In this document: positions 8,164-59,016 of the stretch, in pieces
How positions within the stretch are numbered: the stretch's first letter is position 1
Layout: every line of letters starts with the position of its first letter
Sequence record: QB031382.1
Origin: a phage
Length of the DNA stretch: 64,000 nucleotides
Strand: one strand, 5' to 3'
Notes under the pieces: model-generated
Databases searched by the model: none
What the model saw: only the letters and a program-made list of their open reading frames with translations
Told to the model about the DNA's origin: nothing
Program-made: the position numbers and the translations under genes

Positions 8164-8192
8164 TTGCTTTTGATGTATCTTTGTGGTAAAAT
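8164..8192 (+). promoter_or_regulatory. Sigma70-like promoter
   Basis: TTGCTT, 17-nt spacer, TGGTAAAAT. Confidence 0.5.
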
Positions 8193-42806: not shown

Positions 42807-45800
42807 ATGCTTCCAATCCCTTTGCTAAAACTTGGTCGTCATTTCCTCGATAAGAGGGGTGGAATTAAGGAACTTGCTGTTCTGTCATACCCAATAGACA
42901 ACAGTGATGGCACAAGCACTACAGTACCCTATGTAAATAGCTTAGCTATACTTTTTGATGATGGTCAACTTAATATCACGGGCTATAACAGGTTCGGAGA
43001 GTGCCGTACTGGGGATCTTGACACGATAAACTATCCCAACGAGGCTGCCTGGAACGTTGATCATGTGTGGAGAGCAGACCGTGCGTTTGTAATCCGAACT
43101 TTTGATAATCAGTTTTTCTACATCGGCTGCACTGCAGGGCTTATTGGGTCTGATGCCGCAGGCGGTAATGATGTTTGTGTAAGAGAGTGGACACCTCTTC
43201 CTGAACAGATCGTTAAAGGGTTGCACCTTGACACCCACCCAGAGCGCCTTATTGAGGTGATGGGTGGTATTAACAACACTGTCTGGGTTATTGCAGAGGC
43301 AGAAGGCACTGGTATACTGAACCTGTACGGGTCTGGTAACAACACCTACGGATCTTTGCATGTAGATAAAAATCAGCATGCAACCCCTGTAAAGATCGGT
43401 GAGACATCGGAAAATCCTGAAACAGGCCCTTGGAAAAACCCAAGCATTAACTGCGAGGTGCATGACAACTCTGTTATTTTCGGCGGTCCTAGAGGTTTCT
43501 GGATTGCTGGATACGATTTTCTGAGAAACAACAGTAGAAACGACCTTGTTTGGCCTCCTGTGCAGATTACTCGTAACGATTTGAGGGGCATTCCTGCAGA
43601 TGAGGAGTGGAAAGGGTTTATGTGCGGTCCTAACGGGGCAATAATTGCCACGCAGAGGATGCACACACCCAATGACCAGCAGCTTGTTAACGTATTCTAC
43701 GGGCAAAACGTCTGGGGAGATGACACATGGCGTTCCTTAAATATCACCTACACCCATGAGGTGATAATGGCTCGTGGATACGGCACAAGTGGCATTTTCT
43801 TCAATAATGGCACTAAGCAGTATCGTGGATTCTCTCGCAACTTGTGTAATGATATTGGCGCACAATCTGCAAACAATAGCCCTAGGGCCAATTTTATCCA
43901 CTATCAAGCTCTTGCCACAGCCAAATACGTTGAGCAACGCCTCCCAGTTAGCTGGACAGAGAGTGTTTATTTCCAAGGCATCCACAGGGAAGGTTTCTTA
44001 GGAACCTTTACTGTTGTTAATGGTAAACTTTGGTGGTCAGGCATCCCAAGGGGAAATTTTGCAGGATCTAATAACCTGTTTGGCGGCAGACTTAATAGCC
44101 AAGGGTTCACAGAGGTCCCCGAGAATTGGTATAAAAATGTCCCAGTAGACAGTTGGGGTGTTGAGGATATTTTCGACGTTAACGGTGTTAGCAGCGTTAG
44201 CAATATTTACATTGGTGATACGGTCAAGATGAAATTGAAGCCTCAGCCAGAAGGGGCCACGTTCATTATTGACAAGATTGAACTGGTAAATGCTGCAGGT
44301 ACGGTTGTTACAGATGCAAATTACCAATTCTCTACCAACTGGAACCACGGCGGGGCCAACGAAGTTATTGTTACCCAGTATAACAGGAATGTTAACAGGC
44401 GTGGCCTGTACTCTGTAAAAATAACCTATCATGACAAACATGGCACAGGAAGAACCCACACAACAAGGAATTTGAACTGGAACACTATCGTCCCAGCGTA
44501 TCCGTCTGATGGTAAATGGCATACTGTAGGTAGAAACAAACAGTTCCATGTTAACGACACTGTATACTTTGGACTAAATGCGGCCCAGCCTGCAGTAGAA
44601 GGGGATACATCGTATATGGTCAGACTCCATAGAATGGATGCTGGATCAGTAACTTATGATGTTACCCAAGAGATTTATAATCAGCGACGAAATACCTATG
44701 ATAACTTGGTGCAGACACAGGCCCTATGGGAGTTCAACCCAAACGGAAGGGGTGGTAAAATGTTGCAGGTCAACGAACAAAACGGGACATCGTTGACTGT
44801 TCACGAACACCCAAACCCTTGGCCTGATCCTGGGAAACCGAATTCAGGTGCTCGTACACTAAAAATTGTCAGCCATGACGTAGGATATTTCGGAATACGT
44901 TGGGAAGCCACAGTAAGATATGCCGACGGGACAACAAACAATATTGGGATTACCCTTGGCGGCACCAGTGAGGATAACTCACTGAAAATTGCCTACACTC
45001 CTAGAGGTATTTCTATTGATAATATGGATGTTGTTCGCAATGGTTACGGCGATGTGAATGTCAAAGTTACTCTTGGCGAGCACCTTGGTGGGGAAAGGAT
45101 TATCATGTATGCTTTTGATCATGATCCGCGCACCAATGGAACTTATGCAAATCAGGCATGGAGTTACCTAATAAATGCACCTGAGCCGAATACTAAAGAG
45201 TTCTACTATGGTATGAAGCGAGATGTGTGCAAGAAAACAGGAACACATGACTGGATTGCTATCTGCGTTAAAGATGAGCGCACAGCTTGGGATGAGCCTG
45301 TTAACAGATGGTTCATAGGTATTCCTACCAGAAGTGATAAGTATGTCGCAGAGTATATTGTATGCATGGGCGGTACCAACCTGAACATGTGTTGGAACGA
45401 AGATGTAAACAAATACTCTACTTATGACTATATGAGGGATTATGCTTGTAATCTGTGGTTTAGCCAAACTACAGGTTACCCTCCGCGTCAGGCGAGAGTA
45501 AATCCTGCAATCTTCACAGATACGCAGGTTTTCTTGACAAAACAGGCTAACGAGGTTCAGACCTTTAAGAACAAATACGACCCTAACAAGTGGTTCTACA
45601 ACTGTTCCGGAGCAATATTCTGGGGACCTGCTGAACTGCCTGATACAGGTTCTTGCTTAGGGGCTGCAACCTATGGCAGTGACTATATTATGGGTCAGGT
45701 CAAGAAGTACAAGATAATTCCTGGACCTGCAATTCTAGGTAATGCTGTTGACCCGTACATAAATTTCGCAGCTATACATGCTAATATGGATGGAGGGAGA

Positions 45801-48434
45801 TATCCGTTTGTTGTTCCGTTAAACTGGGGGTACAAACGTGTCGTGATGATTATTAAATGCGATCTGATCGGGAAGCAAGTTCTTGCAGAAAACGGAACCT
45901 CAACACATTTATTCGAGACTGCTCTGCACTACCAGTTTGCAGACTCACCATATGCAGGGGATAAAAGAATATCCGACACAGACTCTAAGCGCTGTAAGAA
46001 AGTTTTACTTGGAGCTGGGTGGTGGTGGTACGAGTTTGATTTGACAGATAAGTTCACAGATGATACCAAAACTCTCACAGGTATCCGTCTGAACCTTGGT
46101 GAGAACATGCATAAAAGTGTTTGTGATGGTACCTACGGTGACCCTACGGTATATCTAAAGTATGTTTCTCTTGAGCATCGCGAAGAGGATGTTTATGGTC
46201 CAAAACTGAGATTGTTTGGCTCATGGATTGCTAAAGACAGAGTAGGTATGGGTAAGAAGGTGAGAGGCTTCTTGATAGATGCAGGGACAGAAGACATGCT
46301 GGTTAATGCAGTATGGCCTGAATTACCAGGAACTCAGTGGGACAACTCTGCCAAATCTATAAACTGGTACAACATTCACAGAGCCATGTGGACCACCAAC
46401 TGCTACTTGTGGAGAGAGCTTAACGATCAGGCTTTCGGCTTCAGTAACGGTAGAAGGATGGCAATCATCTGCTGGACAACGCTGCAAAGATGTTATGACC
46501 ATGACTACGAGATTGGCGGTAGGGCATGGAAAGATATTAGGGATAGAATCATATACAATTTTGCAGATGATAATGGTGGCGGGGCGTATAACTTCGGCAC
46601 AAGCAGGCTCATCCATTTGAACGGATCCTTGGCCTACAAGAAAGAAGGCTACTCTGGGTCCATGATTGAGTGGGGTCTGGTGAAAGATGCTCGCGTATTG
46701 ATGGGTCAACAACTTGCTGCTGCAATAGGACCTAACGCAGTGCAGTCTGTCAAACCAGCGTGGTTCGATATCCCAATATGGTCACCGGGAACTGCGGCAA
46801 TCAACCCTACCACTGGGGATCTGGAAATCTCTTGGGAGGACTTAAAGCAGGTCGGTGGCTGGGATAAGACAGGCTACCAGGTGCAATGGTGGAGATCTGA
46901 CGGATCGTTAGCGGCTGATGAGTTTGTTAAGGACAATTTCTACACCATGTCCTCTGCAAAAGCACAGCAATTGTTTGGTCAGGCCACTCCGTCAACGATC
47001 ACCATGTCCATGTGCTGTAAAGACACCAGGACTGGAGCTCTGGGGCCAAGGGTTGCTAAAGTTTTCTCAGGTATTAAATGGAATCTCCCTGTTCAAGGTG
47101 TTTCATGGAAGCAAATAGGCGATAACAAGCTACTGGTTACTCCTGCCTGCCAGTTCGATGCAACTCTTGACGTTGATCCAGCTGTTGCAGCAAACTCAGC
47201 CAGAGCTTCTGACTTCTCTGTGTCTAACACTGCTATGGCAGATGTGAGAAAGATTGACACACTGAATGCCAGAATTACCTGTAAAAACACTTATGGCACA
47301 TTCCAAATCATCAACAACTTCACAGATACTGATTCTAAGGTGGTGAGGACAGCAAGCCAGACTATGCAGTTGGGTACTCTGGCATACTCTGCCCTGATCA
47401 CTGAACAGTCCTCCACTCTCCAGGGTGGTGGTGTTGGTAAGTTGATCACAACCCCTGTGTGGAAGCCAAACGAGTGGGTTGTGTTTGATTTGACTGTGGA
47501 CTTCTCCAGCGATAATAACTGGACATGGGTGAGGAATTGCTTGTCACAGCTGATGGGTGGCCCAAACTCCATTAGTGATAGCCATGACTCTACTGACCCG
47601 AGTGTGTTCCAGGTTGGTAAAACTCACCCAGAGACTGGGGCACTGTTGCCTGACAGGAAGTATGCTTTGGTTTGCATCTCCAACGGCAAGGCAGATGTAA
47701 CCTTCTCAGGGACACACACATATAACGGCACTTACAACTTCTCTAAAAAGTACAGCCTCAAGGCAGGTAACATTGTAGACGAGGTTGGTGCGTTGTATAA
47801 TCCAGGGAACGGGATAGGGATTGTGGGTGGTAAGCTGCAGATGCAGGAACCTTCTATTACCCCTTCCAATGTGCCAGGAATTAGGAAGACTTGGGAAAGT
47901 AGTGATACCAACATTGCAACAGTGGATGCTACCACAGGGCTGGTAACATTTAAAGCTACTGGGAATGTTACTATAAGGTTTGTAGTTACAGATGATGCAG
48001 GACGCAAAACGTCTTCAACATCGTTTACTGTCAAACAGATGGCACCACAGTGGAGAATGTGGATAGGTACAGCAACAAACGGGGCATATCCTAATCCGGC
48101 AGGGACTTCTGGTATGAAGACTTTCTCTACAAGCAAGCCGATGGAGTACGGCAGCGGTCCTAAGGTAGGGCAGATGGTGTACTTTGGTGCATATATTCCT
48201 GAAATTATAGGGCTTCCGAGAAGTCAGCTTCAGTTGCTGTTTGGGGCTGGTGTTGACGATCTTGCCACTTTCGGGTATAGCGACAACATCGAGGCTGCAA
48301 GGAGTTCAGGATGGGTAGGGTTCAGAATGGAGTCTGGAAAGGAAGGCAGGATTCTAGGGACAGCCTCTATAGGTGTTATGTTCCCTGGTGACCAGCAGTA
48401 TCGTCTGGGAGCCTACGCAACCTTTTCTCGTTAA
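42807..48434 (+). CDS. Giant tail fibre or host-recognition protein with C-terminal Ig-like (Big_2-like) domain
   Basis: 1875 aa, aromatic-rich. Residues encoded ~47855-48035 (TWESSDTNIATVDATTGLVTFKATGNVTIRFVVTDDAGRKTSSTSFTV) fit a Big_2-type Ig-like domain. Confidence 0.5.
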   Translation: MLPIPLLKLGRHFLDKRGGIKELAVLSYPIDNSDGTSTTVPYVNSLAILFDDGQLNITGYNRFGECRTGDLDTINYPNEAAWNVDHVWRADRAFVIRTFDNQFFYIGCTAGLIGSDAAGGNDVCVREWTPLPEQIVKGLHLDTHPERLIEVMGGINNTVWVIAEAEGTGILNLYGSGNNTYGSLHVDKNQHATPVKIGETSENPETGPWKNPSINCEVHDNSVIFGGPRGFWIAGYDFLRNNSRNDLVWPPVQITRNDLRGIPADEEWKGFMCGPNGAIIATQRMHTPNDQQLVNVFYGQNVWGDDTWRSLNITYTHEVIMARGYGTSGIFFNNGTKQYRGFSRNLCNDIGAQSANNSPRANFIHYQALATAKYVEQRLPVSWTESVYFQGIHREGFLGTFTVVNGKLWWSGIPRGNFAGSNNLFGGRLNSQGFTEVPENWYKNVPVDSWGVEDIFDVNGVSSVSNIYIGDTVKMKLKPQPEGATFIIDKIELVNAAGTVVTDANYQFSTNWNHGGANEVIVTQYNRNVNRRGLYSVKITYHDKHGTGRTHTTRNLNWNTIVPAYPSDGKWHTVGRNKQFHVNDTVYFGLNAAQPAVEGDTSYMVRLHRMDAGSVTYDVTQEIYNQRRNTYDNLVQTQALWEFNPNGRGGKMLQVNEQNGTSLTVHEHPNPWPDPGKPNSGARTLKIVSHDVGYFGIRWEATVRYADGTTNNIGITLGGTSEDNSLKIAYTPRGISIDNMDVVRNGYGDVNVKVTLGEHLGGERIIMYAFDHDPRTNGTYANQAWSYLINAPEPNTKEFYYGMKRDVCKKTGTHDWIAICVKDERTAWDEPVNRWFIGIPTRSDKYVAEYIVCMGGTNLNMCWNEDVNKYSTYDYMRDYACNLWFSQTTGYPPRQARVNPAIFTDTQVFLTKQANEVQTFKNKYDPNKWFYNCSGAIFWGPAELPDTGSCLGAATYGSDYIMGQVKKYKIIPGPAILGNAVDPYINFAAIHANMDGGRYPFVVPLNWGYKRVVMIIKCDLIGKQVLAENGTSTHLFETALHYQFADSPYAGDKRISDTDSKRCKKVLLGAGWWWYEFDLTDKFTDDTKTLTGIRLNLGENMHKSVCDGTYGDPTVYLKYVSLEHREEDVYGPKLRLFGSWIAKDRVGMGKKVRGFLIDAGTEDMLVNAVWPELPGTQWDNSAKSINWYNIHRAMWTTNCYLWRELNDQAFGFSNGRRMAIICWTTLQRCYDHDYEIGGRAWKDIRDRIIYNFADDNGGGAYNFGTSRLIHLNGSLAYKKEGYSGSMIEWGLVKDARVLMGQQLAAAIGPNAVQSVKPAWFDIPIWSPGTAAINPTTGDLEISWEDLKQVGGWDKTGYQVQWWRSDGSLAADEFVKDNFYTMSSAKAQQLFGQATPSTITMSMCCKDTRTGALGPRVAKVFSGIKWNLPVQGVSWKQIGDNKLLVTPACQFDATLDVDPAVAANSARASDFSVSNTAMADVRKIDTLNARITCKNTYGTFQIINNFTDTDSKVVRTASQTMQLGTLAYSALITEQSSTLQGGGVGKLITTPVWKPNEWVVFDLTVDFSSDNNWTWVRNCLSQLMGGPNSISDSHDSTDPSVFQVGKTHPETGALLPDRKYALVCISNGKADVTFSGTHTYNGTYNFSKKYSLKAGNIVDEVGALYNPGNGIGIVGGKLQMQEPSITPSNVPGIRKTWESSDTNIATVDATTGLVTFKATGNVTIRFVVTDDAGRKTSSTSFTVKQMAPQWRMWIGTATNGAYPNPAGTSGMKTFSTSKPMEYGSGPKVGQMVYFGAYIPEIIGLPRSQLQLLFGAGVDDLATFGYSDNIEAARSSGWVGFRMESGKEGRILGTASIGVMFPGDQQYRLGAYATFSR

Positions 48435-48443
48435 CAAGGGGTA

Positions 48444-48476
48444 AATAAAAAGGGGCCAAACGGCCCCTTTCTTTTT
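48444..48476. terminator. Bidirectional intrinsic terminator at convergent junction
   Basis: AGGGGCC / AAAC / GGCCCCT flanked by an A-run upstream and T-run downstream. Confidence 0.65.
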
Positions 48477-48480
48477 ATAG

Positions 48481-48681
48481 TTAGTAATACTCCCAACATG
48501 CCCCATCTTCAGACGGCTTGACGCGCTTACCTTTATGGTCAACATAGGTATAGCCACAACCTTCACAAATAACAGGTGCTGCATAGCCTTCCTTCCACTG
48601 ATCCTCAGTGATCAGACCTTCCAAATCTTTGCAGTCAAAGCCAAACAACTCTTCAGAGCAATCTTTACAAAAATCAGCCAT
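48481..48681 (-). CDS. Small zinc-ribbon-like protein
   Basis: 66 aa with CKDC and CEGCG pairs; RBS GAGG; start overlaps upstream stop. Confidence 0.45.
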   Translation of the reverse strand: MADFCKDCSEELFGFDCKDLEGLITEDQWKEGYAAPVICEGCGYTYVDHKGKRVKPSEDGACWEYY

Positions 48682-48684
48682 TTC

Positions 48685-49092
48685 TCAGTCCTCGCATTTA
48701 ACAAATTTTTCTACAGATCCGCCAAGCACAGCTTGTTGCTTGATGGCACTTCCTTCATCATAGTGGATAGATTTATGCTCCGTTCCACCAAACTTCCCTG
48801 TGTGGAAAGTATGCACCCAAATCTCTTTGGGAAGGGATTTATTCTCTTCCTCCACCAACTCCCACATACCCCACAAGTGATCTGTGATATCTCTGATGAA
48901 ATATCCCTCACCAAGATTTGTATTCACACTGTAGGTGGATTTGTGATCTCCGCAAATATAACGGAAGGCAGTGTACTCTTTTCCCGGTGTGAAGTGGGTA
49001 TCCATCAGTATGGCTGTTAGAGAATAAGGGTCTCGAAAGCCCAAGAATTTTAGTTTAACAATTTCGACGTTCACACTTGCAAGATTATCCAT
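48685..49092 (-). CDS. Hypothetical early protein
   Basis: ATG 49092 preceded by AGAGGAGA; the longer ORF to 49167 would start at TTG. Candidate promoter TTGACA-15-TATGAT at 49125-49151. Confidence 0.45.
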   Translation of the reverse strand: MDNLASVNVEIVKLKFLGFRDPYSLTAILMDTHFTPGKEYTAFRYICGDHKSTYSVNTNLGEGYFIRDITDHLWGMWELVEEENKSLPKEIWVHTFHTGKFGGTEHKSIHYDEGSAIKQQAVLGGSVEKFVKCED

Positions 49093-49255
49093 GACAATCT
49101 CCTCTGTTTGGTTGGTGAGATAATCATATATAAGTCTGGTGTTAGTGTCAAGCTTAATTTTAAGCAATTTGAGAAGGTATTTTATTCAGAAGGGTAATCA
49201 CACAGAGGTAGGCAGTTTATGAAGGCACAGGCCTCTTTTGAGGCCTTAAAATCGA

Positions 49256-49636
49256 TTATGACACTTTGACGTAGCGCTCTGACAAAGCTGGAAAGCCAAC
49301 AGAAGTACCTATGCTGCCGTATGCTATCCACCATTGAAGTTCATCGTGACACCATTTTCCGATCAGAAAGGTGCTGGGGTAGCGAGTCAGTATTTTGGCA
49401 TAAGCTTTAGGATCTGCATCCTCTGGGATAATGATGCTTGGAGCATCTTTGTTATGACCACAGCAGCAGTTTAGAGTTTTCAATCCTGCCGCCCATAGAC
49501 TCATGATAGGCTTAACCATGCACTTATCAAGGCACACACGTTTTTTGCCGTCACGGAGCTTTTTAGGCACATCAACGATAACATTTTGATGCTTGGCACC
49601 TTTCACTTTCCAATTATAGGATTTACACTTGCACAT
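49256..49636 (-). CDS. Hypothetical Cys-rich protein
   Basis: 126 aa; RBS GGAG. Confidence 0.45.
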   Translation of the reverse strand: MCKCKSYNWKVKGAKHQNVIVDVPKKLRDGKKRVCLDKCMVKPIMSLWAAGLKTLNCCCGHNKDAPSIIIPEDADPKAYAKILTRYPSTFLIGKWCHDELQWWIAYGSIGTSVGFPALSERYVKVS

Positions 49637-49687
49637 TTAATCAGTCTCCATTTAGAAGTACACACTATTACGTTTTTGAGGCATACC

Positions 49688-49858
49688 TTACTTAAAGTCT
49701 TTATCACCTGTTACGATTGCACGAATCCACTCATTGTGATGCTTAATGGCGGTAAGGTGTAACATAATGTAGTGATTGTCATTACCAAACACGGCGCGAC
49801 AAGCTTTAGCAGCACCATGGTGTAACTTCCACATCAAGTAATGGTATCTTCGTTTCAT
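49688..49858 (-). CDS. Small basic His-rich ORF (56 aa), not in the supplied ORF track
   Basis: MKRRYHYLMWKLHHGAAKACRAVFGNDNHYIMLHLTAIKHHNEWIRAIVTGDKDFK. Start overlaps the upstream stop (ATGA); fills an otherwise empty 218-nt gap. Confidence 0.3.
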   Translation of the reverse strand: MKRRYHYLMWKLHHGAAKACRAVFGNDNHYIMLHLTAIKHHNEWIRAIVTGDKDFK

Positions 49859-50328
49859 GGCTCTTTCTCCGGTTCAGGATCTGGGTAATCTTCAATAATA
49901 AAGGGCCATCCGTTACGCTTAGCGTCAGACTTATACTCAATTTCCTTCATTGCAAACTCTAGCTGATTCTTGGCTGGAATGCAAGCTGGAGAATCATCAA
50001 CCCAGATGTCCGGGTAGATATCAAACTGCGCCAGATAAGCGGCCTTTTGAACACCTCCAGTATAAAACACTCCAACATCAAGTTCCTTGCGCCAGTATTC
50101 AATGTCCACATTATCTTGAGTGATGAATCGAAAAGTCACAAGGTAGACTGTCCACCCTTCCTTCTTCAGGTCCTTAATCAAGCGGGAGAAGATGAAAGGG
50201 CTCGCATTAAACGTTCCATCAAAGTCAATGGCTATGATATGTGTGCCGTGGCGAGTCTCATATGGATTGCTCGTGGTAAGATTGCTGTAGTTAAAAGGCA
50301 CTTCTTCCCCGCAGTAGCTGTAGTCCAT
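49855..50328 (-). CDS. HAD-superfamily phosphatase-like protein (possible nucleotidase)
   Basis: IIAIDFDGTF (DxDGT motif I) and VWVDDSP (motif IV-like). ATG 50328 with GAAGGTG RBS; GTG 50334 alternative. Confidence 0.45.
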   Translation of the reverse strand: MDYSYCGEEVPFNYSNLTTSNPYETRHGTHIIAIDFDGTFNASPFIFSRLIKDLKKEGWTVYLVTFRFITQDNVDIEYWRKELDVGVFYTGGVQKAAYLAQFDIYPDIWVDDSPACIPAKNQLEFAMKEIEYKSDAKRNGWPFIIEDYPDPEPEKEP

Positions 50329-50330
50329 AT

Positions 50331-50606
50331 TCACACCTTCTCGTTAATAAATTTACGGGCGGTTTGGTGAGTTGTTTCTGCTGTCTTCAGAATGATATTA
50401 ATTTTATTGTCAAGATCATTCATCTCAGCAGTTAATTCAGGAATCTCTCCAGCATGCATGGTGAAATCATACATAGACATGCCTAGAATCTCGTTAATGC
50501 GGCGGTTGCATTCTGCAGCACGCTGGTTCATTTTCCACGCTAACACCAAAGCCTCCTGTGTGGCTTCTAATGCAAAGTCTAATACGTCGGCCTCTTCTTT
50601 CGTCAT
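50331..50606 (-). CDS. Hypothetical helical protein
   Basis: 91 aa; RBS AGGAGAG. Confidence 0.45.
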   Translation of the reverse strand: MTKEEADVLDFALEATQEALVLAWKMNQRAAECNRRINEILGMSMYDFTMHAGEIPELTAEMNDLDNKINIILKTAETTHQTARKFINEKV

Positions 50607-50661
50607 CTCAGTCTCTCCTGTTTATTGTTGATAGGTGCATGAATGCCTTATAACTAACTCT

Positions 50662-51228
50662 TTATTCAAATTGCAATAGCAAGTCCACCACCGCGCTAGG
50701 TCTGTCAACAAACTCCCCAGGCCCACATGCCCATAGAGGGTATCCGTCCACATACCTCCATATCCAACCTGAAGTGTGGAGCTCAAGAAGGGCAGTACCG
50801 TCCTCACTGTCAACCACTCTTTCCCACAGTGTTGGGCAGCGAAGCTTGAGGATCGGATCCCCGCCCTTATACCCATCCATGTAGATACCCATTGCAAAGT
50901 TCAGCATCATCTTTTTGTGCACTGACCTCTTACTGAGGGTGCTCATCACTTCCTCCTTGTGGATGTTTGTAAGCTTCTCCTTGGCTACCTGCAGATCGTT
51001 GCAGCCATTGTTCAGGAGATCTTCCAGACACTTTACCCTAAGGTCGTGGATATCTTTGTCGTGCACCGTTGGTACAGGGTCGTAGCGATATAGCACTGTT
51101 GATACAAGGTTGCTAGGGTGTGGGTCTGACAGCAGCCCATAACCCCAATACTCTTCTGTATCTGAAAGGACAAGACACCCAATATCTCTGTCAAGCTTTC
51201 CTGTGTTGTACGCCACATTGACCGCCAT
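50662..51228 (-). CDS. Hypothetical protein
   Basis: 188 aa; RBS GGAG 8 nt upstream. Confidence 0.45.
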   Translation of the reverse strand: MAVNVAYNTGKLDRDIGCLVLSDTEEYWGYGLLSDPHPSNLVSTVLYRYDPVPTVHDKDIHDLRVKCLEDLLNNGCNDLQVAKEKLTNIHKEEVMSTLSKRSVHKKMMLNFAMGIYMDGYKGGDPILKLRCPTLWERVVDSEDGTALLELHTSGWIWRYVDGYPLWACGPGEFVDRPSAVVDLLLQFE

Positions 51229-51230
51229 GA

Positions 51231-51476
51231 TTATAGCTCCACTAACAAAGTGCTTTCAAAATGCCTCTCATGCAGACCGCTATAAGGAACCACTTCCACA
51301 ACACCGTCTCGGATATATGGAGTCATCATGGCAACATAATCACCGAATGGGTTGGCATTATCACTAACCACAACCACATGCTGCCCCTCCTTGGCAGAGT
51401 GCCAGATAGATCTGCATTTCATCATGTGTTCGAGAGCTCCAGGTAAAATCTTGTTACGTTCTTTACGGGTCTTCAT
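51231..51476 (-). CDS. Hypothetical protein
   Basis: 81 aa; start overlaps upstream stop (ATGA). Confidence 0.45.
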   Translation of the reverse strand: MKTRKERNKILPGALEHMMKCRSIWHSAKEGQHVVVVSDNANPFGDYVAMMTPYIRDGVVEVVPYSGLHERHFESTLLVEL

Positions 51477-51922
51477 AACAGGTATAGCTCCTTATGAAAG
51501 TGGGCTTTCAATTTCTCACCGAGAAACTTCTTGATACCTTCCTCTAAGGTGTTTTCGATGTAGTCCAGCTTAACTGCTTCTATGGACATATCATAGATCG
51601 CCAGCTCTAAGCTGTCAAGTCCCATCATAGCATGAACCATAAGATTTTCATCTTCAGATACATTCAGGGGGCTGCCTATAACATCCGGGGGCAGAATAGT
51701 TTCCCAATTATTCTGGGTGGTAGATCTCTCGCCATCCACCTTACGTCGCAGCTCGAAGGTGTTTTTAGTGTAAAACACTTCATAAGAAACGATACGACTG
51801 TCGCTCTCGTAATAAACGAAGTTCAGGTAGGAGCCGAGCCGTAGTCGGCAAACTTCTACTCCAAACCATTGTTTCTTATAAGAATTCAGGCTAATGCTTT
51901 CGCATTCGCGTTTGCTCAACAC
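51473..51922 (-). CDS. Hypothetical protein
   Basis: 149 aa; GTG start after AAGGAG. Confidence 0.45.
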   Translation of the reverse strand: MLSKRECESISLNSYKKQWFGVEVCRLRLGSYLNFVYYESDSRIVSYEVFYTKNTFELRRKVDGERSTTQNNWETILPPDVIGSPLNVSEDENLMVHAMMGLDSLELAIYDMSIEAVKLDYIENTLEEGIKKFLGEKLKAHFHKELYLL

Positions 51923-51937
51923 GGCTCTCTCCTTTTG

Positions 51938-52171
51938 TTAATCTTCGTAAATCAGGATCTCTGCTTTAGGTTTTCGTGCTTTCAGGTCCAGCTCTATCCA
52001 GTGCACCACAGATGTTTCAAGAAAAACAGCCTGTATGCATCCGTCTTCAGCGTGTCCTACTAGCATAACAAGATCTTCACCTTCGTCATCTGCATCACGA
52101 ACATACAGAATCTCTCCAGATTCAAAGTCTTTCACAACCTGGTTGCTGGATAATTTACGAATTTTTGCCAT
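51938..52171 (-). CDS. Hypothetical acidic protein
   Basis: 77 aa; tightly packed in operon. Confidence 0.4.
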   Translation of the reverse strand: MAKIRKLSSNQVVKDFESGEILYVRDADDEGEDLVMLVGHAEDGCIQAVFLETSVVHWIELDLKARKPKAEILIYED

Positions 52172-52172
52172 A

Positions 52173-52436
52173 TCAGAAACCCTCTAAAAAGCTCTTGTAG
52201 AAAATAATCTCAGTATCCACACCAGTCACGATCTTATCGTTCCTGATTTCATCTGTAAGATAGGTGTCAAAACGCAGAACCTGTGTGGTGTTGTCACACA
52301 TCCACTCGGCTGTGACCATGGCGAAAATCTTAGCATCTTCATTGTCAGGTGTGAATGTTACCACCTCACCGCATTTAAACTTTTCGATAGGCTGCGTGTT
52401 AGCTTTCGGTTCTGCAATGGTTATTTTTGTGGTCAT
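52173..52436 (-). CDS. Hypothetical protein
   Basis: 87 aa; start overlaps upstream stop. Confidence 0.4.
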   Translation of the reverse strand: MTTKITIAEPKANTQPIEKFKCGEVVTFTPDNEDAKIFAMVTAEWMCDNTTQVLRFDTYLTDEIRNDKIVTGVDTEIIFYKSFLEGF

Positions 52437-52693
52437 TGTTCTTCCTCCATAGTTTCACCAAATACTTCGATACGAGCGTCAAGCTCTGTTGCTTTCAGCT
52501 CTCCAACAAAATCTTTCAGTTCTTTCTCGTCAAGATCATATGCCCACACACAAGATGAGCACGCAGATTTCACGATTAGCAGTGTAGATACACGACCTGA
52601 CTCTGTAATCATGCTCACAATAGTTCCTACAGGAAACGTGTTGATAGCTTTTTTAACTGGGCGTTCAGCTTTAATTACTACTTCTGTTGCCAT
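52433..52693 (-). CDS. Hypothetical protein
   Basis: ATG 52693 lies 9 nt after AGAGAGG; ATG 52702 abuts the RBS. Confidence 0.4.
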   Translation of the reverse strand: MATEVVIKAERPVKKAINTFPVGTIVSMITESGRVSTLLIVKSACSSCVWAYDLDEKELKDFVGELKATELDARIEVFGETMEEEQ

Positions 52694-52708
52694 AAATAAC
52701 ATCCTCTC

Positions 52709-54169
52709 TTATTTAGCGTACTCGATCAATTCTACAGTTTTCCCAAAGCTTGGGATATAATTTTTATTATACCCTTCGGTGAGAACCCATAAAGTATCGT
52801 ACTTTTTCCACTTGTTGTCAACAGCCTTTTGTTCAAAGTTATGCTCAAAGTATAGGTCGGTCAGGACGATGACATCTTTTGCATTTGGTATGTTAGCGTC
52901 CAGATACTCGAACACGCAAGCGGCTGTTGTTCCCCATGTTGAGTGGACCTCATAGTTGATCATCTCGTCGATGTTCCCACGAGTGTATACTTTAACCTCT
53001 CCAACCTCGGTTGACCAGCAGAACATCGTAACCTTGAACTCTTTATACAGATTGCACAACCCAGTGATCTCATTGAACATTTTCTTTAAAGTTCTTTGGG
53101 AGATCGATCCAGAAACGTCTAGAGCCACCACAATATCTATAGTGTTTTCCGGATTACGACCTGGAACAACAACGTGCTGATTCTTGTTTATAGCCCCAAC
53201 TTTTCGCATTGTGCTGGTCAAAGACCCAGATCGGCGACCGGGTTTTCTATAGGTTAGTTCAGCCTTTCGTTTAGACAGCATACGTTGCTTAATGATGTCT
53301 ATATAATTGATTACAGGCTTACCTCTGTTCTTGACAAACTCACGCACAGCCTCAGGGCAACGACCTCCGGAAGCCTGCATTGCTGCTTCCAACATGTCAC
53401 CAGAGTCCTGCATGGCTTGATCTTTATCAGATTGACTGATCACTGGTTGTGGCTGATCATACCCCATCGCCTTTCCAAGATCATCACTAGTGCCACCGTT
53501 ACCACTCATGTGATCATCGGTTTGTCGTTTATCTCCTTGAGAGTTCTCTCCTTTACCGTTCTTACTTTTACCGCTATTCTGATCTCTTTGCTTATCAAGA
53601 ACCGCATAGACGTTCTCAGCAATCCATCCATGGAACCTCATGTCACAGTAGCAACTAGCTAAGAAGCCAAAAGGCTTACCTTTTACAAACGTAGTGCTTT
53701 TCCCCTTCGGGAAGAAAACACAAGGTGGCTTGCTAAAGTCAACCACAAGACCTGTGTTGATAACATGATCACAGGCAATATTGAACAGCTCCGGCTCAAA
53801 GCTTTTACCACGGACCAGATGATCACAGATAATATGTCCCACCTCATGCGATAGAAGAAATGCCACCTCTTTCACAGATTTGGGGGAATAGAAAACCTCA
53901 GCCATCTCAAACTGCTTGTCAGTCAAAGATGCCTTAAGAATGGTTTTGCGCTCATCGGCCAATCCCATAACGAACTCAGGACTGTAATAAATGCGTTTAT
54001 GATCTGTTGCCATGGTGGAGCACCATGTGTGGTTTTCTACGAACTGCAACCCTGATAACAGTGTGCCATAAAACGGCAGTTTTTCAAGAAGATACATACG
54101 TGCTGCCTGCAGCATTCGCAAGGCGTCATCTTTTTGTGCGGCAATGATTTCTGAACTTCTGCTATCCAT
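52709..54169 (-). CDS. VWA-domain protein with N-terminal HExxH metallopeptidase-like region
   Basis: HEVGHIICDH (HExxH) in the N-terminal third. C-terminal DVSGSIS fits a MIDAS DxSxS motif. Gln/Asp/Ser-rich linker between. Confidence 0.55.
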   Translation of the reverse strand: MDSRSSEIIAAQKDDALRMLQAARMYLLEKLPFYGTLLSGLQFVENHTWCSTMATDHKRIYYSPEFVMGLADERKTILKASLTDKQFEMAEVFYSPKSVKEVAFLLSHEVGHIICDHLVRGKSFEPELFNIACDHVINTGLVVDFSKPPCVFFPKGKSTTFVKGKPFGFLASCYCDMRFHGWIAENVYAVLDKQRDQNSGKSKNGKGENSQGDKRQTDDHMSGNGGTSDDLGKAMGYDQPQPVISQSDKDQAMQDSGDMLEAAMQASGGRCPEAVREFVKNRGKPVINYIDIIKQRMLSKRKAELTYRKPGRRSGSLTSTMRKVGAINKNQHVVVPGRNPENTIDIVVALDVSGSISQRTLKKMFNEITGLCNLYKEFKVTMFCWSTEVGEVKVYTRGNIDEMINYEVHSTWGTTAACVFEYLDANIPNAKDVIVLTDLYFEHNFEQKAVDNKWKKYDTLWVLTEGYNKNYIPSFGKTVELIEYAK

Positions 54170-54181
54170 TAAAACTCCAGA

Positions 54182-54198
54182 AGGGGCCTTTGGCCCCT
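54182..54198 (-). other. Intercistronic hairpin between two leftward genes
   Basis: GGGGCC / loop / GGCCCC between stop at 54203 and start at 54169. Confidence 0.35.
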
Positions 54199-54202
54199 GT
54201 CA

Positions 54203-55192
54203 TTATTTAACGTGCTTGAAAATACCAGCCAACTCGGTCATTGTCATGCGGGTGGTCTTCATGAGGTCTGTCATAGCCTTCTCCATAATTGGAGATACTA
54301 CCATAAAGTTACCTTTGGTGAAACCTTTATTCCAGTCGGTAACTAATAGTGGTTTAAGTCCGGACCCGAGACGCTCACCAGTTAAAGCACAACATTTTCG
54401 AATGTATGTGCTCTTAAACTGGCTGAATGACAGATCAACTTTCATACCTGCATCGTAGAACGTCTGGCAATAGAAAGTGTAAGCTTTGGCAATCTCAACA
54501 TCGTCAGGCAGTGCAGGAACCTCTTCTGTAAGCTCTTCTTCGCCCCCTTGAGGCTCTTTTTCCTCTTCGTGGTCTTGTTGTATCATTTCTTCAATCTCTT
54601 CTGTTACAGGCTCGTTTACAATGTCAGAAATGTGCTTGTTGGCTCCACGATTAGCCATGAAGTTTTTAAAATCCTGCATTGGTGACATATCTTCCTCCCA
54701 TTCTTCGTCAAAGAGTGCTAGTTTATCCTCTTCCGTTCCATATTGCAAGATGAAATCTTCAAAAGTGTAATCACCTTTCAATTTCTCCATACGCTCTTCG
54801 CTCAGGTGGAGCATCATCTGCTGGACAATTTTTCGATCAGTTTTGTCTTTAATCAAGATTGCGGTCTTTTTATCTACCAGGCAGTCTTTCAGAGAGTTAC
54901 ACCTCAATCCTACCACACAACAGTTATCAATTGCGTAAGGACCTTCATCATCTATCCGCTCCAGAGATGGGTAGAAAGGATTCCCCAGCCCGTTTTCATC
55001 TGTGTGCATGTCGAAAGGTATAAGGGTATAGTCGCATACCCCCTCTCCTAAAAGTTTTTTACCAAATAGGAGGTATTCTTCCCATGACAGGTTGAACTCT
55101 ATATCTCGTTTCCGTGCATTATTTTGTTTGCGTCTGTATTTTTTGAGCAGGCGCTCTAACTCTTCTGGTGTATAATATTTTTCAAGATTCAT
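54203..55192 (-). CDS. Early protein with degenerate HNH_3-like segment and acidic linker
   Basis: ATG 55192 chosen because a promoter (TTGACA-17-TAAGAT) sits inside the TTG-initiated extension to 55258. LERIDDEGPYAIDNCCVVGLRCNSLK resembles an HNH_3 core lacking the catalytic His. Confidence 0.4.
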   Translation of the reverse strand: MNLEKYYTPEELERLLKKYRRKQNNARKRDIEFNLSWEEYLLFGKKLLGEGVCDYTLIPFDMHTDENGLGNPFYPSLERIDDEGPYAIDNCCVVGLRCNSLKDCLVDKKTAILIKDKTDRKIVQQMMLHLSEERMEKLKGDYTFEDFILQYGTEEDKLALFDEEWEEDMSPMQDFKNFMANRGANKHISDIVNEPVTEEIEEMIQQDHEEEKEPQGGEEELTEEVPALPDDVEIAKAYTFYCQTFYDAGMKVDLSFSQFKSTYIRKCCALTGERLGSGLKPLLVTDWNKGFTKGNFMVVSPIMEKAMTDLMKTTRMTMTELAGIFKHVK

Positions 55193-55223: not shown

Positions 55224-55252
55224 ATCTTATCAAGTGCCTGGGAATATGTCAA
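55224..55252 (-). promoter_or_regulatory. Leftward sigma70-like promoter
   Basis: On the minus strand: TTGACA, 17-nt spacer, TAAGAT. Confidence 0.5.
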
Positions 55253-55265
55253 CCTCAAAAACGTG

Positions 55266-55294
55266 TTGACTTTACTCTAAATCCACGATATAGT
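55266..55294 (+). promoter_or_regulatory. Rightward sigma70-like promoter
   Basis: TTGACT, 17-nt spacer, TATAGT; divergent from the leftward promoter. Confidence 0.5.
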
Positions 55295-57562: not shown

Positions 57563-57832
57563 ATGTTATACCAGCAGTACGAACTTCGTGCAGAAAAAGA
57601 ATTAAATTTTGACAAAGATATTCACAGATATTATTATGGGAAAGTTAGAGGACAAGCAAGAAAGTGTACTCCAACACTCTTTCATGCCAGCAGACGACTA
57701 GCTCCAGAAGAGGCAACAGCAGAAAGGGTTGCATATGGCTGGAGAGTTGCGTATGATATTGACAGATCCGATGTGATGTCTGTTTTGGAAAACTTTGAAA
57801 ACACTTACACACAAGTAGAGGACTTTTACTAA
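57563..57832 (+). CDS. Hypothetical protein
   Basis: 89 aa; RBS GGAG. Confidence 0.45.
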   Translation: MLYQQYELRAEKELNFDKDIHRYYYGKVRGQARKCTPTLFHASRRLAPEEATAERVAYGWRVAYDIDRSDVMSVLENFENTYTQVEDFY

Positions 57833-59016
57833 TGTCAAGAAACGTATTCGAAAGTGGTCAAATCACTGTCCGCGAGTTGCCAGCTATTATTCAATTTGCC
57901 CAGCGTCATAACCGATCTGTCCTGATTTTAGGACCGATGGGTGTGGGGAAGAGCCAGGTGATGAAGCAGATTGCTGATAATATGTTCGGTGAGCGAGATG
58001 ACAACCTGGTTGACGTGCGGCTGTCAGATAAAGATCCTGCTGACTTATCTGGACTACCTATCCCTGTAGAGGCAGATGGAACTACACGCACAGTGTTTGC
58101 AATTCCAGAATTTTGGCCTGCAGACTCGGACTGGAGCGGAATTATCTTTCTGGATGAGCTTACTCATGCAGATAACTACCTGCAGAAGGTTGCAATGCAA
58201 ATTATGCTCGACCACAAGTGCGGCACCTATGCATTTCCTAAGGGCTCTGTTTTTGTAGCTGCAGGTAACCGTGCTACAGATGGTGCTGTTCTTTCGGCGC
58301 TCGAAGCTCCTCTGGCTAACCGCTTTATCATTGTAGAAGTTACAAGCAATGCAGAGGTATTTATTGAGGACTACGCATTCCTTAATGGTGTACATTCCTC
58401 TGTAATTGGATATCTGAAAAGAGTTCCATCAGCTATCGATAATTATGAGGCTATGGCTGAGATTAATTGTCCGTCTTTTGCCACACCGCGATCTTGGGTT
58501 GCTGCATCTGACATCCTGCACGATTTTGACAGCGGTATTATTTCTGACGCTATGGCTCGTGTTCTTCTGCAAGGTGCTATTGGTCACACTGCAGCGGTAG
58601 AAATCTGGACCTACCACACCAAGAAACGAAACTTGCCAGAAATCGGTCGGATTATGGCAGGGGGTTGCAAAGAGTATGTAGGTCCTAAGCAGCCAGACAT
58701 CTTGTGGATTCTGGGGTCTGAAGGTTGTATCGCTATTCGTAACATGATGGAAAATGCAAGTATCTCCGACGAAGATCTTGTCAGCTGTGTGGCAAACTTC
58801 CTTGATTTCCTTTGGGAAAATTTCAAAGATGAAAACCGAGACTTTGTATTCTCAGTCTTTATGGCGATGATGAAACCCAACGCCCTAGGGAATGCCTTAC
58901 TTATTGGTAAAGGCCGGGACAAGATCGTTGCTCAGCTGATCAAAGCATACCCAAACCTGATGAAGATTGTAAAAGAGTTTGGTGAAGAGTTTAGCGCCAT
59001 TTTAGCTAAAGCTTGA
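57832..59016 (+). CDS. AAA+ ATPase, MoxR/CobS-like (AAA_5-type)
   Basis: Walker A GPMGVGKS, Walker B IIFLDELTHA, then VFVAAGNRATDG. Single-module length typical of MoxR-type ATPases. Confidence 0.6.
   Translation: MSRNVFESGQITVRELPAIIQFAQRHNRSVLILGPMGVGKSQVMKQIADNMFGERDDNLVDVRLSDKDPADLSGLPIPVEADGTTRTVFAIPEFWPADSDWSGIIFLDELTHADNYLQKVAMQIMLDHKCGTYAFPKGSVFVAAGNRATDGAVLSALEAPLANRFIIVEVTSNAEVFIEDYAFLNGVHSSVIGYLKRVPSAIDNYEAMAEINCPSFATPRSWVAASDILHDFDSGIISDAMARVLLQGAIGHTAAVEIWTYHTKKRNLPEIGRIMAGGCKEYVGPKQPDILWILGSEGCIAIRNMMENASISDEDLVSCVANFLDFLWENFKDENRDFVFSVFMAMMKPNALGNALLIGKGRDKIVAQLIKAYPNLMKIVKEFGEEFSAILAKA

Follow-up and report, generated by a model that had tools for sequence, protein, structure and literature searches.

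The DNA analyzed here is a 64,000-nucleotide stretch of phage sequence (record QB031382.1; "the window" denotes this whole stretch), and the subject is a block of 12 small, leftward-reading genes at positions 48481–52702, numbered g1 to g12 from its left-hand end. We consider it probable, at roughly two chances in three, that this block holds the small genes of a Vequintavirus accessory unit driven from a host promoter, corresponding to genes 11–26 of phage rV5, with products that tune the infected cell in particular hosts. The genes prove to be dispensable in the laboratory yet under strong purifying selection; their small, soluble, mostly acidic cytoplasmic products most likely, therefore, modify infected cells of certain hosts. 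The evidence for this reading, and the alternatives to it, are set out below.

Identity and prior description of the block

The window is DNA of a Vequintavirus (an rV5-like myophage), a membership borne out by a match that is collinear across the whole block, gene by gene, with both rV5 and Bas54 (phage MaxBurger). The 4.2-kb block shows 92–97% nucleotide identity over its full length to 121 phage records, nearly all of them Escherichia Vequintavirus, with vB_EcoM_SYGMH1 the closest match at 96.9%; in 107 records the block is covered to 100%, again at 92–97% identity. Sixteen MG0656xx records titled "Campylobacter phage" (host Campylobacter jejuni) are ~92% identical to the E. coli rV5-like phages over the block, and these host labels look doubtful.

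The rV5 equivalents of the block are open reading frames (ORFs) 14–26, flanked by ORF 27, a 1878-amino-acid (aa) immunoglobulin-like (Ig-like) fiber, and by ORFs 11–13; rV5 genes 11–26 were proposed as one transcription unit in 2013 (Kropinski et al., Virol J 10:76; PMC3606486). That unit and bas54_0042–0056 of Bas54 share gene order, divergent promoters, and a bidirectional terminator, with 92–97% identity at the DNA level. Eleven of the 12 block proteins are 86–100% identical to their Bas54 orthologs (bas54_0042 for g1, bas54_0045–0054 for g3–g12). Bas54 differs at the g2 locus, where it carries two other small genes: bas54_0043 matches the N-terminal half of g2 alone (52%), and the neighboring gene is unrelated. 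An earlier sequence-only reading of the window, made without database searches, had called this its least characterized part. The proteins are indeed uncharacterized, and a literature search found no named function for the genes; but the block is already known, as annotated hypothetical genes of a transcription unit defined in 2013, and a near-identical phage, Bas54, has been mutagenized genome-wide.

A leftward unit behind a host-type promoter

The block makes up the distal portion of a leftward unit of 14 genes that comprises a promoter, the genes g14 and g13, the 12 small genes, and a terminator. The promoter, recognized by a sequence scan, is of the sigma70 type (55224–55252, minus strand; TTGACA, a 17-nt spacer, and a TG-extended TAAGAT) and corresponds to rV5 promoter P11 (PMC3606486); it stands back-to-back with a rightward promoter at 55266–55294. 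At the other end, a bidirectional rho-independent terminator (48449–48470, both strands), a perfect GC hairpin with T-runs on both strands, is common to the block and a converging 1875-aa tail-fiber gene, and rV5 annotates terminators on both strands at this place.

Co-orientation and a promoter and terminator that are both present and conserved would fit a single operon; yet there are conserved hairpins after g14 and g3, and a promoter-like site before g2. The latter is a candidate internal sigma70 promoter for g2–g1 (49123–49151, minus strand; TTGACA, 17 nt, TATGAT); it is conserved and lies within a 163-nt gap, 25 nt upstream of a strong g2 ribosome-binding site, with a conserved hairpin just upstream of it, after g3 (about 49224–49244). 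The GC hairpin between g14 and g13 (54182–54198, minus strand) has a stem that is invariant and a loop that varies among genomes, and is possibly an attenuator or mRNA-stability element; its stem, GGGGCC/GGCCCC, is that of the terminal terminator, but without the adjoining T-run. Across five genomes the promoter hexamers, the terminator stem, and the two internal hairpin stems are conserved, while spacers and loops vary. Rfam and repeat scans of the unit returned nothing. The leftward operon described in the sequence-only reading is co-oriented and translationally coupled as stated, but it begins some 2.5 kb farther upstream, at 55.25 kb, and probably contains an internal promoter before g2.

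The motif TGGTAAAATA, late-promoter-like as reported for rV5 by Kropinski et al. (PMC3606486), has 18 matches in the window against 5.75 expected; 15 of these fall on the plus strand of the structural module, and a scan of the window gave no match for the block's minus strand. Given the sigma70-type promoter and the lack of TGGTAAAATA on the block's minus strand, non-late expression from host-type promoters appears the best explanation of the arrangement. This T4-late-like motif stands just upstream of several structural genes within window positions 2000–45000 (plus strand), for example at 8184, 13347, 27496, and 33313. A literature search found no transcriptome of the rV5-like phage group.

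The first gene of the unit, g14 (54203–55192, minus strand; 329 aa; rV5 gp11), lies outside the block and encodes an Srd-like anti-sigma/decoy protein; it matches PHROGs 3118, 4592, and 1400, where the label of 4592 is decoy of host sigma70 and that of 1400 is Srd anti-sigma factor. The second, g13 (52709–54169, minus strand; 486 aa), also outside the block, encodes a DUF2201_N metallopeptidase and vWA-like protein (Pfam PF13203, 5e-28; PF09967, 3e-11). The rV5 RefSeq record differs here: its DUF2201 gene (NC_011041, 7756–9217) is split into the overlapping ORFs gp012 (441 aa) and gp013 (81 aa). Because a single 486-aa ORF is found in the window and in other relatives, the rV5 sequence probably carries a frameshift or sequencing error in this gene.

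With this anatomy, host RNA polymerase would read the unit from the sigma70-type promoter at 55.25 kb, at an early or non-late stage; transcription would pass through the Srd-like gene and the vWA-metallopeptidase gene and then into the small genes, which would be translated by coupling. The second promoter may boost g2–g1, and the bidirectional terminator would end the unit.

In layout, the block resembles the small non-essential early clusters of T4 and the pre-early region of T5: small, overlapping, non-essential genes stand behind host-type promoters, a host-directed factor (here the Srd-like protein) is adjacent, and content varies among relatives. It differs from those systems in having no sequence relationship to their characterized takeover proteins, the upstream Srd-like gene excepted. 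Toxic pre-early genes are the topic of a PNAS 2026 paper, which deals with T5-like phages, not the rV5-like group. The sequence-only reading had seen in this layout the typical form of host-takeover and anti-defense cassettes. The sigma70-type promoter, the Srd-like gene, the lack of a late motif, the variable content, and the dispensability of the genes in K-12 all accord with that view; a host-takeover or anti-defense role for the block is plausible but, like toxicity of any of its products, unproven.

Coding evidence

The interval 48481–52702 contains 12 minus-strand ORFs of 56–188 aa. The tight leftward run of genes of this size had been recognized beforehand, though counted as about eleven, and its limits had been placed exactly: position 48481 is the last base of the g1 stop codon, and 52702 is the longest possible g12 start. 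The overlapping ATGA stop/start codons said to pack the genes exist in part. Four junctions have 4-nt overlaps, with ATGA at g12/g11, g9/g8, and g5/g4 and GTGA at g6/g5; the other junctions have gaps, five of 1–15 nt and three larger ones of 51, 55, and 163 nt. The ribosome-binding sites claimed for each gene are all present: a Shine–Dalgarno core of at least 4 nt lies 6–11 nt upstream of 12 of 12 starts, as against 16.7% of random window positions. The ratio of nonsynonymous to synonymous substitution rates (dN/dS), taken pairwise against an IMG/VR relative and rV5, is 0.00–0.18 for all 12 genes at dS of ~0.3–1.5, with g1, almost identical to its rV5 copy, outside that dS range. These Shine–Dalgarno cores and low ratios together establish the ORFs as genuine protein genes under purifying selection.

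None of the 12 proteins has a transmembrane segment, and all are soluble; most are acidic, with g3 and g4 basic. The PHROG families that they match are all of unknown function, save for a "tail protein" label on the family of g9. Recognizable motifs had been reported for two genes alone, and both are confirmed—CxxC...CxxC in g1 and DxDxT...T...K...DD in g5—but g3, with conserved Cys and His residues, is a third.

Transposon data and the weight of the reading

A 2025 preprint reports transposon insertion sequencing (Tn-seq) of Bas54 (bioRxiv 10.1101/2025.11.20.689424). In E. coli K-12, all genes from bas54_0042 to bas54_0056 are classed there as "Non-essential," except bas54_0043 ("Reduced fitness"). 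The clinical-isolate data used here (the CFE311 sample) are one comparison with K-12, in a sheet headed CFE303 whose command line names sample 311. In this comparison, the MoxR ATPase gene bas54_0063 is lost (log2 fold change −7.23), the g13 ortholog bas54_0055 is depleted (−2.20, q 0.009), and the g9 ortholog bas54_0051 is nominally depleted (−2.28, p 0.028); the g10 ortholog bas54_0052, directly upstream of g9, stands at −1.32, which is not significant, and the other ten small genes range from −0.09 to +0.47 (bioRxiv 10.1101/2025.11.20.689424). Within the 14-gene unit, g9 and g13 alone are depleted where the phage MoxR is required, g9 nominally so. The two signals are not one polar effect, since g11 and g12, which lie between them, are unaffected. 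The authors credit counter-defense against the DS-28 system, from strain CFE311, to MoxR and bas54_0140, and report MoxR as required against cloned DS-28 (bioRxiv 10.1101/2025.11.20.689424).

Some further features of these data deserve mention. MoxR and the g13 ortholog are both depleted in the CFE311 sample, and the text of the preprint mentions MoxR alone. In its Extended Data Table 8 ("resampling_K-12_vs_CFE303"), the rows for bas54_0060–0079 recur with the same values, and the strain label is ambiguous. The converging 1875-aa Ig-like "intimin-domain" lateral tail fiber (42807–48434, plus strand in the window) is non-essential on K-12 in Bas54 and, on the clinical isolate, shows depletion (−2.23, q 0).

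Several results count against an accessory unit that tunes the cell in particular hosts. Ten of the 12 genes have no phenotype in the clinical strain; the depletion of g9 is lost on correction for multiple tests (q 0.195), and similar shifts, of −2.1 to −2.9, occur in some twelve unrelated genes of Bas54, so that the g9 signal is no more than a hint. The DS-28 factors named by the authors of the preprint are MoxR and bas54_0140, not genes of the block. Early timing is suggested by promoter type alone. Pfam, NCBIfam, and PADLOC searches found no match for any of the 12 proteins and hence, within these three libraries, none to a known defense or anti-defense family. Finally, for g5, the candidate phosphatase of the block, the best HAD matches of the family profile in the PDB are not significant (AphA, E ~0.1; 2obb, E 0.8), and a Foldseek search with its predicted structure gave no match at E ≤ 1e-3, HAD entries being dispersed among the weaker matches. 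The sequence-only reading had itself set its proposal against the case in which all the ORFs match characterized housekeeping phage proteins; no gene of the block has a curated family match.

The conservation of genes that are under selection yet laboratory-dispensable implies that the value of the block must lie in natural hosts. This bears on practice, as candidates for therapy and biocontrol are commonly drawn from the rV5-like phages, in which roughly two of every three genes lack a known function. In place of twelve equal unknowns, the analysis yields a shortlist. First on it are g9, the vWA-metallopeptidase, and MoxR, jointly a candidate counter-defense machine; second is g5, a candidate minimal phosphatase domain that in other phages is fused to portal and prohead-protease proteins.

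g9 as a probable partner of the vWA-metallopeptidase and MoxR

The proposed link from g9 to the vWA-metallopeptidase and to MoxR is new in this analysis and is its sole specific mechanistic lead. g9 (51473–51922, minus strand; 149 aa) is confined to Vequintavirinae-like phages, to which the structure database BFVD adds structural relatives in PVP-SE1 (gp215) and Erwinia phage Hena1. It lies near the DUF2201 gene in every lineage examined: Vequintavirus, a clade with a 61%-identical g13, L009 (the clade that diverges most), PVP-SE1, FENT2, and 18-India. Three genes separate g13 from g9 here and one does so in the 61% clade, whereas the two directly abut or overlap in PVP-SE1, FENT2, and 18-India; in L009 a remote g9 homolog (hhalign probability 97%, E 4e-11) also abuts or overlaps the DUF2201 gene. 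A MoxR-like AAA+ ATPase is encoded at 57832–59016 (plus strand), 3.7 kb from g13 and in a divergent transcription unit.

Proteins of the g13 type, which join a DUF2201_N metallopeptidase to a vWA-like domain, are the usual partners of MoxR ATPases. MoxR–vWA pairs function as chaperone-like remodeling machines and also belong to conflict systems (PMC7159879), and a phage vWA variant with an N-terminal metallopeptidase, found in jumbo phages, has been proposed to serve virion assembly (PMC7824862). The present system is like the described MoxR/vWA cochaperone pairs (Iyer et al., 2021; Kaur et al., 2020) in the architecture of g13, which is exactly that of a metallopeptidase plus vWA protein, and in having a gene for a MoxR-like ATPase at a distance of 3.7 kb; it differs in that the genes stand on divergent units rather than side by side, and a conserved small neighbor such as g9 has not been described for such systems. 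Taken with the Tn-seq hint, this neighborhood suggests that g9 probably works together with the vWA-metallopeptidase and the MoxR ATPase of the phage. It is also conceivable, though unlikely, that g9 is an unrecognized third component of the MoxR/vWA-metallopeptidase machine, for example an adaptor or substrate selector; that this machine would dismantle or proteolyze a host defense complex such as DS-28; and that g10–g12 would be arms-race add-ons serving as specificity factors or decoys.

The main rival to the accessory-unit reading would place these proteins in morphogenesis: the MoxR–vWA-metallopeptidase system, g9, and perhaps other small proteins would be assembly chaperones or processing factors for the neighboring tail fibers, needed on certain hosts only. 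The block does abut the tail-fiber module, tail development of the archaeal virus ATV requires a MoxR–vWA system, the jumbo-phage variant has its proposed assembly role (PMC7824862), and several genes for tail fibers show conditional essentiality in the same CFE311 experiment in which MoxR, g13, and g9 drop. We nonetheless regard this alternative as improbable. The block occupies the other strand, lies past a bidirectional terminator, and lacks the late motif; all of its genes are dispensable for infective virions on K-12; and the Bas54 authors report a requirement for MoxR against cloned DS-28. Six chosen tryptic peptides from g13, g9, g7, g5, and g2 do not appear in the mass-spectrometry table of the rV5 virion. 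The "tail protein" label on the PHROG family of g9 (6790), which would favor an assembly role, derives from one automatic annotation, "tail I protein" in KR091942, and identification of g9 as a tail protein was rejected, two of its tryptic peptides being absent from the same table. A holin label, found in MW883061 and JLBYU08, is likewise excluded, because g9 has no hydrophobic segment (maximum 19-residue Kyte–Doolittle mean 0.99, against a cut-off of 1.6); its predicted structure is that of a soluble protein of sheet and helices.

Structure prediction with Foldseek had been proposed as a check for each protein of the block; it was run for g5 and g9 and gave no significant or informative fold match. 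The AlphaFold2 (AF2) model of g9 (predicted local distance difference test, pLDDT, 65) has a six-stranded sheet and three helices, and fold searches with it returned no informative match; the model of g5 is poorer still (pLDDT 54). These models are weak and their alignments shallow because the homolog search gave almost solely near-identical relatives. When g5, g3, and g9 were compared with PDB sequences, both singly and as profiles, nothing significant emerged.

A candidate phosphatase, g5

g5 (49855–50328, or to 50334 from the longer start; minus strand; 157 or 159 aa) is probably a cap-less HAD-type phosphatase, as predicted from its conserved residues. From 80 IMG/VR loci with relatives, 47 non-redundant domains of 24–97% identity were aligned; D35, D37, T65, R67, K95, P106, D107, W109, D111, and D112 are invariant in all 47, and T39 is conserved in at least 90%. 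The conserved pattern DxDxT...T...K...DD represents HAD motifs I–IV in order. In the order and identity of these motifs (DxDxT, T-x-R, K, DD) and in a predicted beta–alpha–beta core, modeled as beta–alpha–beta–alpha–beta–alpha, g5 is like cap-less HAD phosphatases such as the class B acid phosphatase AphA; it differs in its far shorter domain (~100 residues) and in profile and fold matches that are not significant. Matches of family members to Pfam are likewise sub-threshold.

Such a domain raises the possibility that the block is a module for nucleotide or nucleic-acid metabolism, with g5 a nucleotidase or nucleic-acid end phosphatase and its neighbors cofactors that reshape nucleotide pools or repair RNA or DNA. 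The invariance of the HAD motifs, the weak matches of g5 to the nucleotidase AphA and a Pfam 5-nucleotidase, and the pairing of g5 with g4 (49688–49858, minus strand; 56 aa; basic), to which it is translationally coupled through ATGA and next to which it remains in distant relatives, would all be consistent with this. We judge it less likely again than a role in assembly, given that all of the g5 matches are non-significant, that g5 is dispensable on K-12 and CFE311, that its family profile, when aligned with T4 PseT, shows no relation to that phosphatase (hhalign probability 0.4%), and that such a module accounts for one or two genes, not the block. One record, PQ014731, labels g5 "polynucleotide kinase," which on its face favors the metabolic view; this label is unsupported in light of the PseT comparison and was rejected, the 157 aa containing no P-loop or kinase domain.

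A minimal HAD domain of the g5 type is also found in unrelated phages, fused there at the C-terminus of a lambda-family portal protein and of Peptidase_S78 prohead proteases (IMG/VR contigs L057:1216–3306, L070:1657–2634, and L083:2446–3402). The fused domain in those phages may, judging from this architecture, be packaged in the capsid.

Mosaic conservation and the remaining genes

Within the accessory unit favored here, conservation is uneven. Against IMG/VR relatives, g13, g12, g9, g8, g7, g6, g5, and g4 are kept at 29–61% identity, while g11, g10, g3, g2, and g1 are missing or lie elsewhere; the remotest relative retains only g9-like, g5, and g3 homologs. By sequence comparison, the block is a mosaic, with a core of g12 and g9–g4, lineage-specific g11, g10, and g2, a g1 common to unrelated virulent phages, and a relocated g3. 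The idea that these are mostly neutral cargo, selfish or decaying functionless ORFs kept by hitch-hiking, could appeal to the non-essentiality of all the genes, the variable block ends, and the insertions that intergenic gaps tolerate, but it is disfavored and very unlikely given the low dN/dS of every gene at dS 0.3–1.5, ORFs intact in more than 100 genomes, and core genes kept at 29–61% identity in another clade.

At the promoter-proximal end of the block, g12 (52433–52693, or to 52702 from the longer start; minus strand; 86 or 89 aa; acidic) is orthologous to an 83-aa gene that follows g13 in the 61% clade (hhalign 100%). The acidic, Vequintavirus-specific g11 (52173–52436, minus strand; 87 aa) and g10 (51938–52171, minus strand; 77 aa) both weakly resemble g12 (E 1.4e-4 and probability 52% for g11; E 2.6e-4 and 43% for g10; controls E 0.04–0.5), and may, on these comparisons, be its distant tandem paralogs.

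The core further includes g8 (51231–51476, minus strand; 81 aa), g7 (50662–51228, minus strand; 188 aa), and g6 (50331–50606, minus strand; 91 aa), the last with sub-threshold matches to helical and coiled-coil families. g7 is an orphan: an exhaustive HMMER search of 1.84 billion representative proteins found three true relatives alone, one of them a 197-aa tandem paralog in the 61% clade. The C-terminal ~35 residues of g7 (~141–178; window 50662–50800; TSGWIWRYVDGYPLWACGPGEF...) match a motif repeated 5–8 times in large representative-library proteins of 650–2365 aa, and may thus represent a single copy of a propeller-type repeat.

Two of the distal genes are predicted to bind metal. g1 (48481–48681, minus strand; 66 aa; PHROG 2210) has four conserved Cys that form the two CxxC knuckles of a zinc ribbon, C5-x2-C8 and C39-x2-C42, and is a probable zinc ribbon; it occurs in 836 phage records, including Felix-O1-like (~70% identical) and T5-like (~60%) phages, and a label as alpha-aminoadipate carrier protein was not confirmed by any sequence-family search. 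The Cys-rich, basic g3 (49256–49636, minus strand; 126 aa), with conserved C2, C4, C39, CCC57–59, and H61, probably binds metal as well; it is restricted to this subfamily and found at other genome positions in relatives, and no sequence-family search confirmed its label as a TYW3 methyltransferase. Between them, g2 (48685–49092, minus strand; 135 aa, or 160 aa from an unlikely TTG start) consists of two modules and is encoded at a locus that varies.

Changes in gene content fall in the larger intergenic gaps. Some relatives of the rV5 unit have an extra insert of ~1 kb between g7 and g6; in one close relative (IMGVR_UViG_3300010279_000001; L004:11504–12542), this insert occupies the gap that measures 55 nt here and contains a 152-aa ORF without a Pfam match, and the g4–g3 spacer of the same genome also differs.

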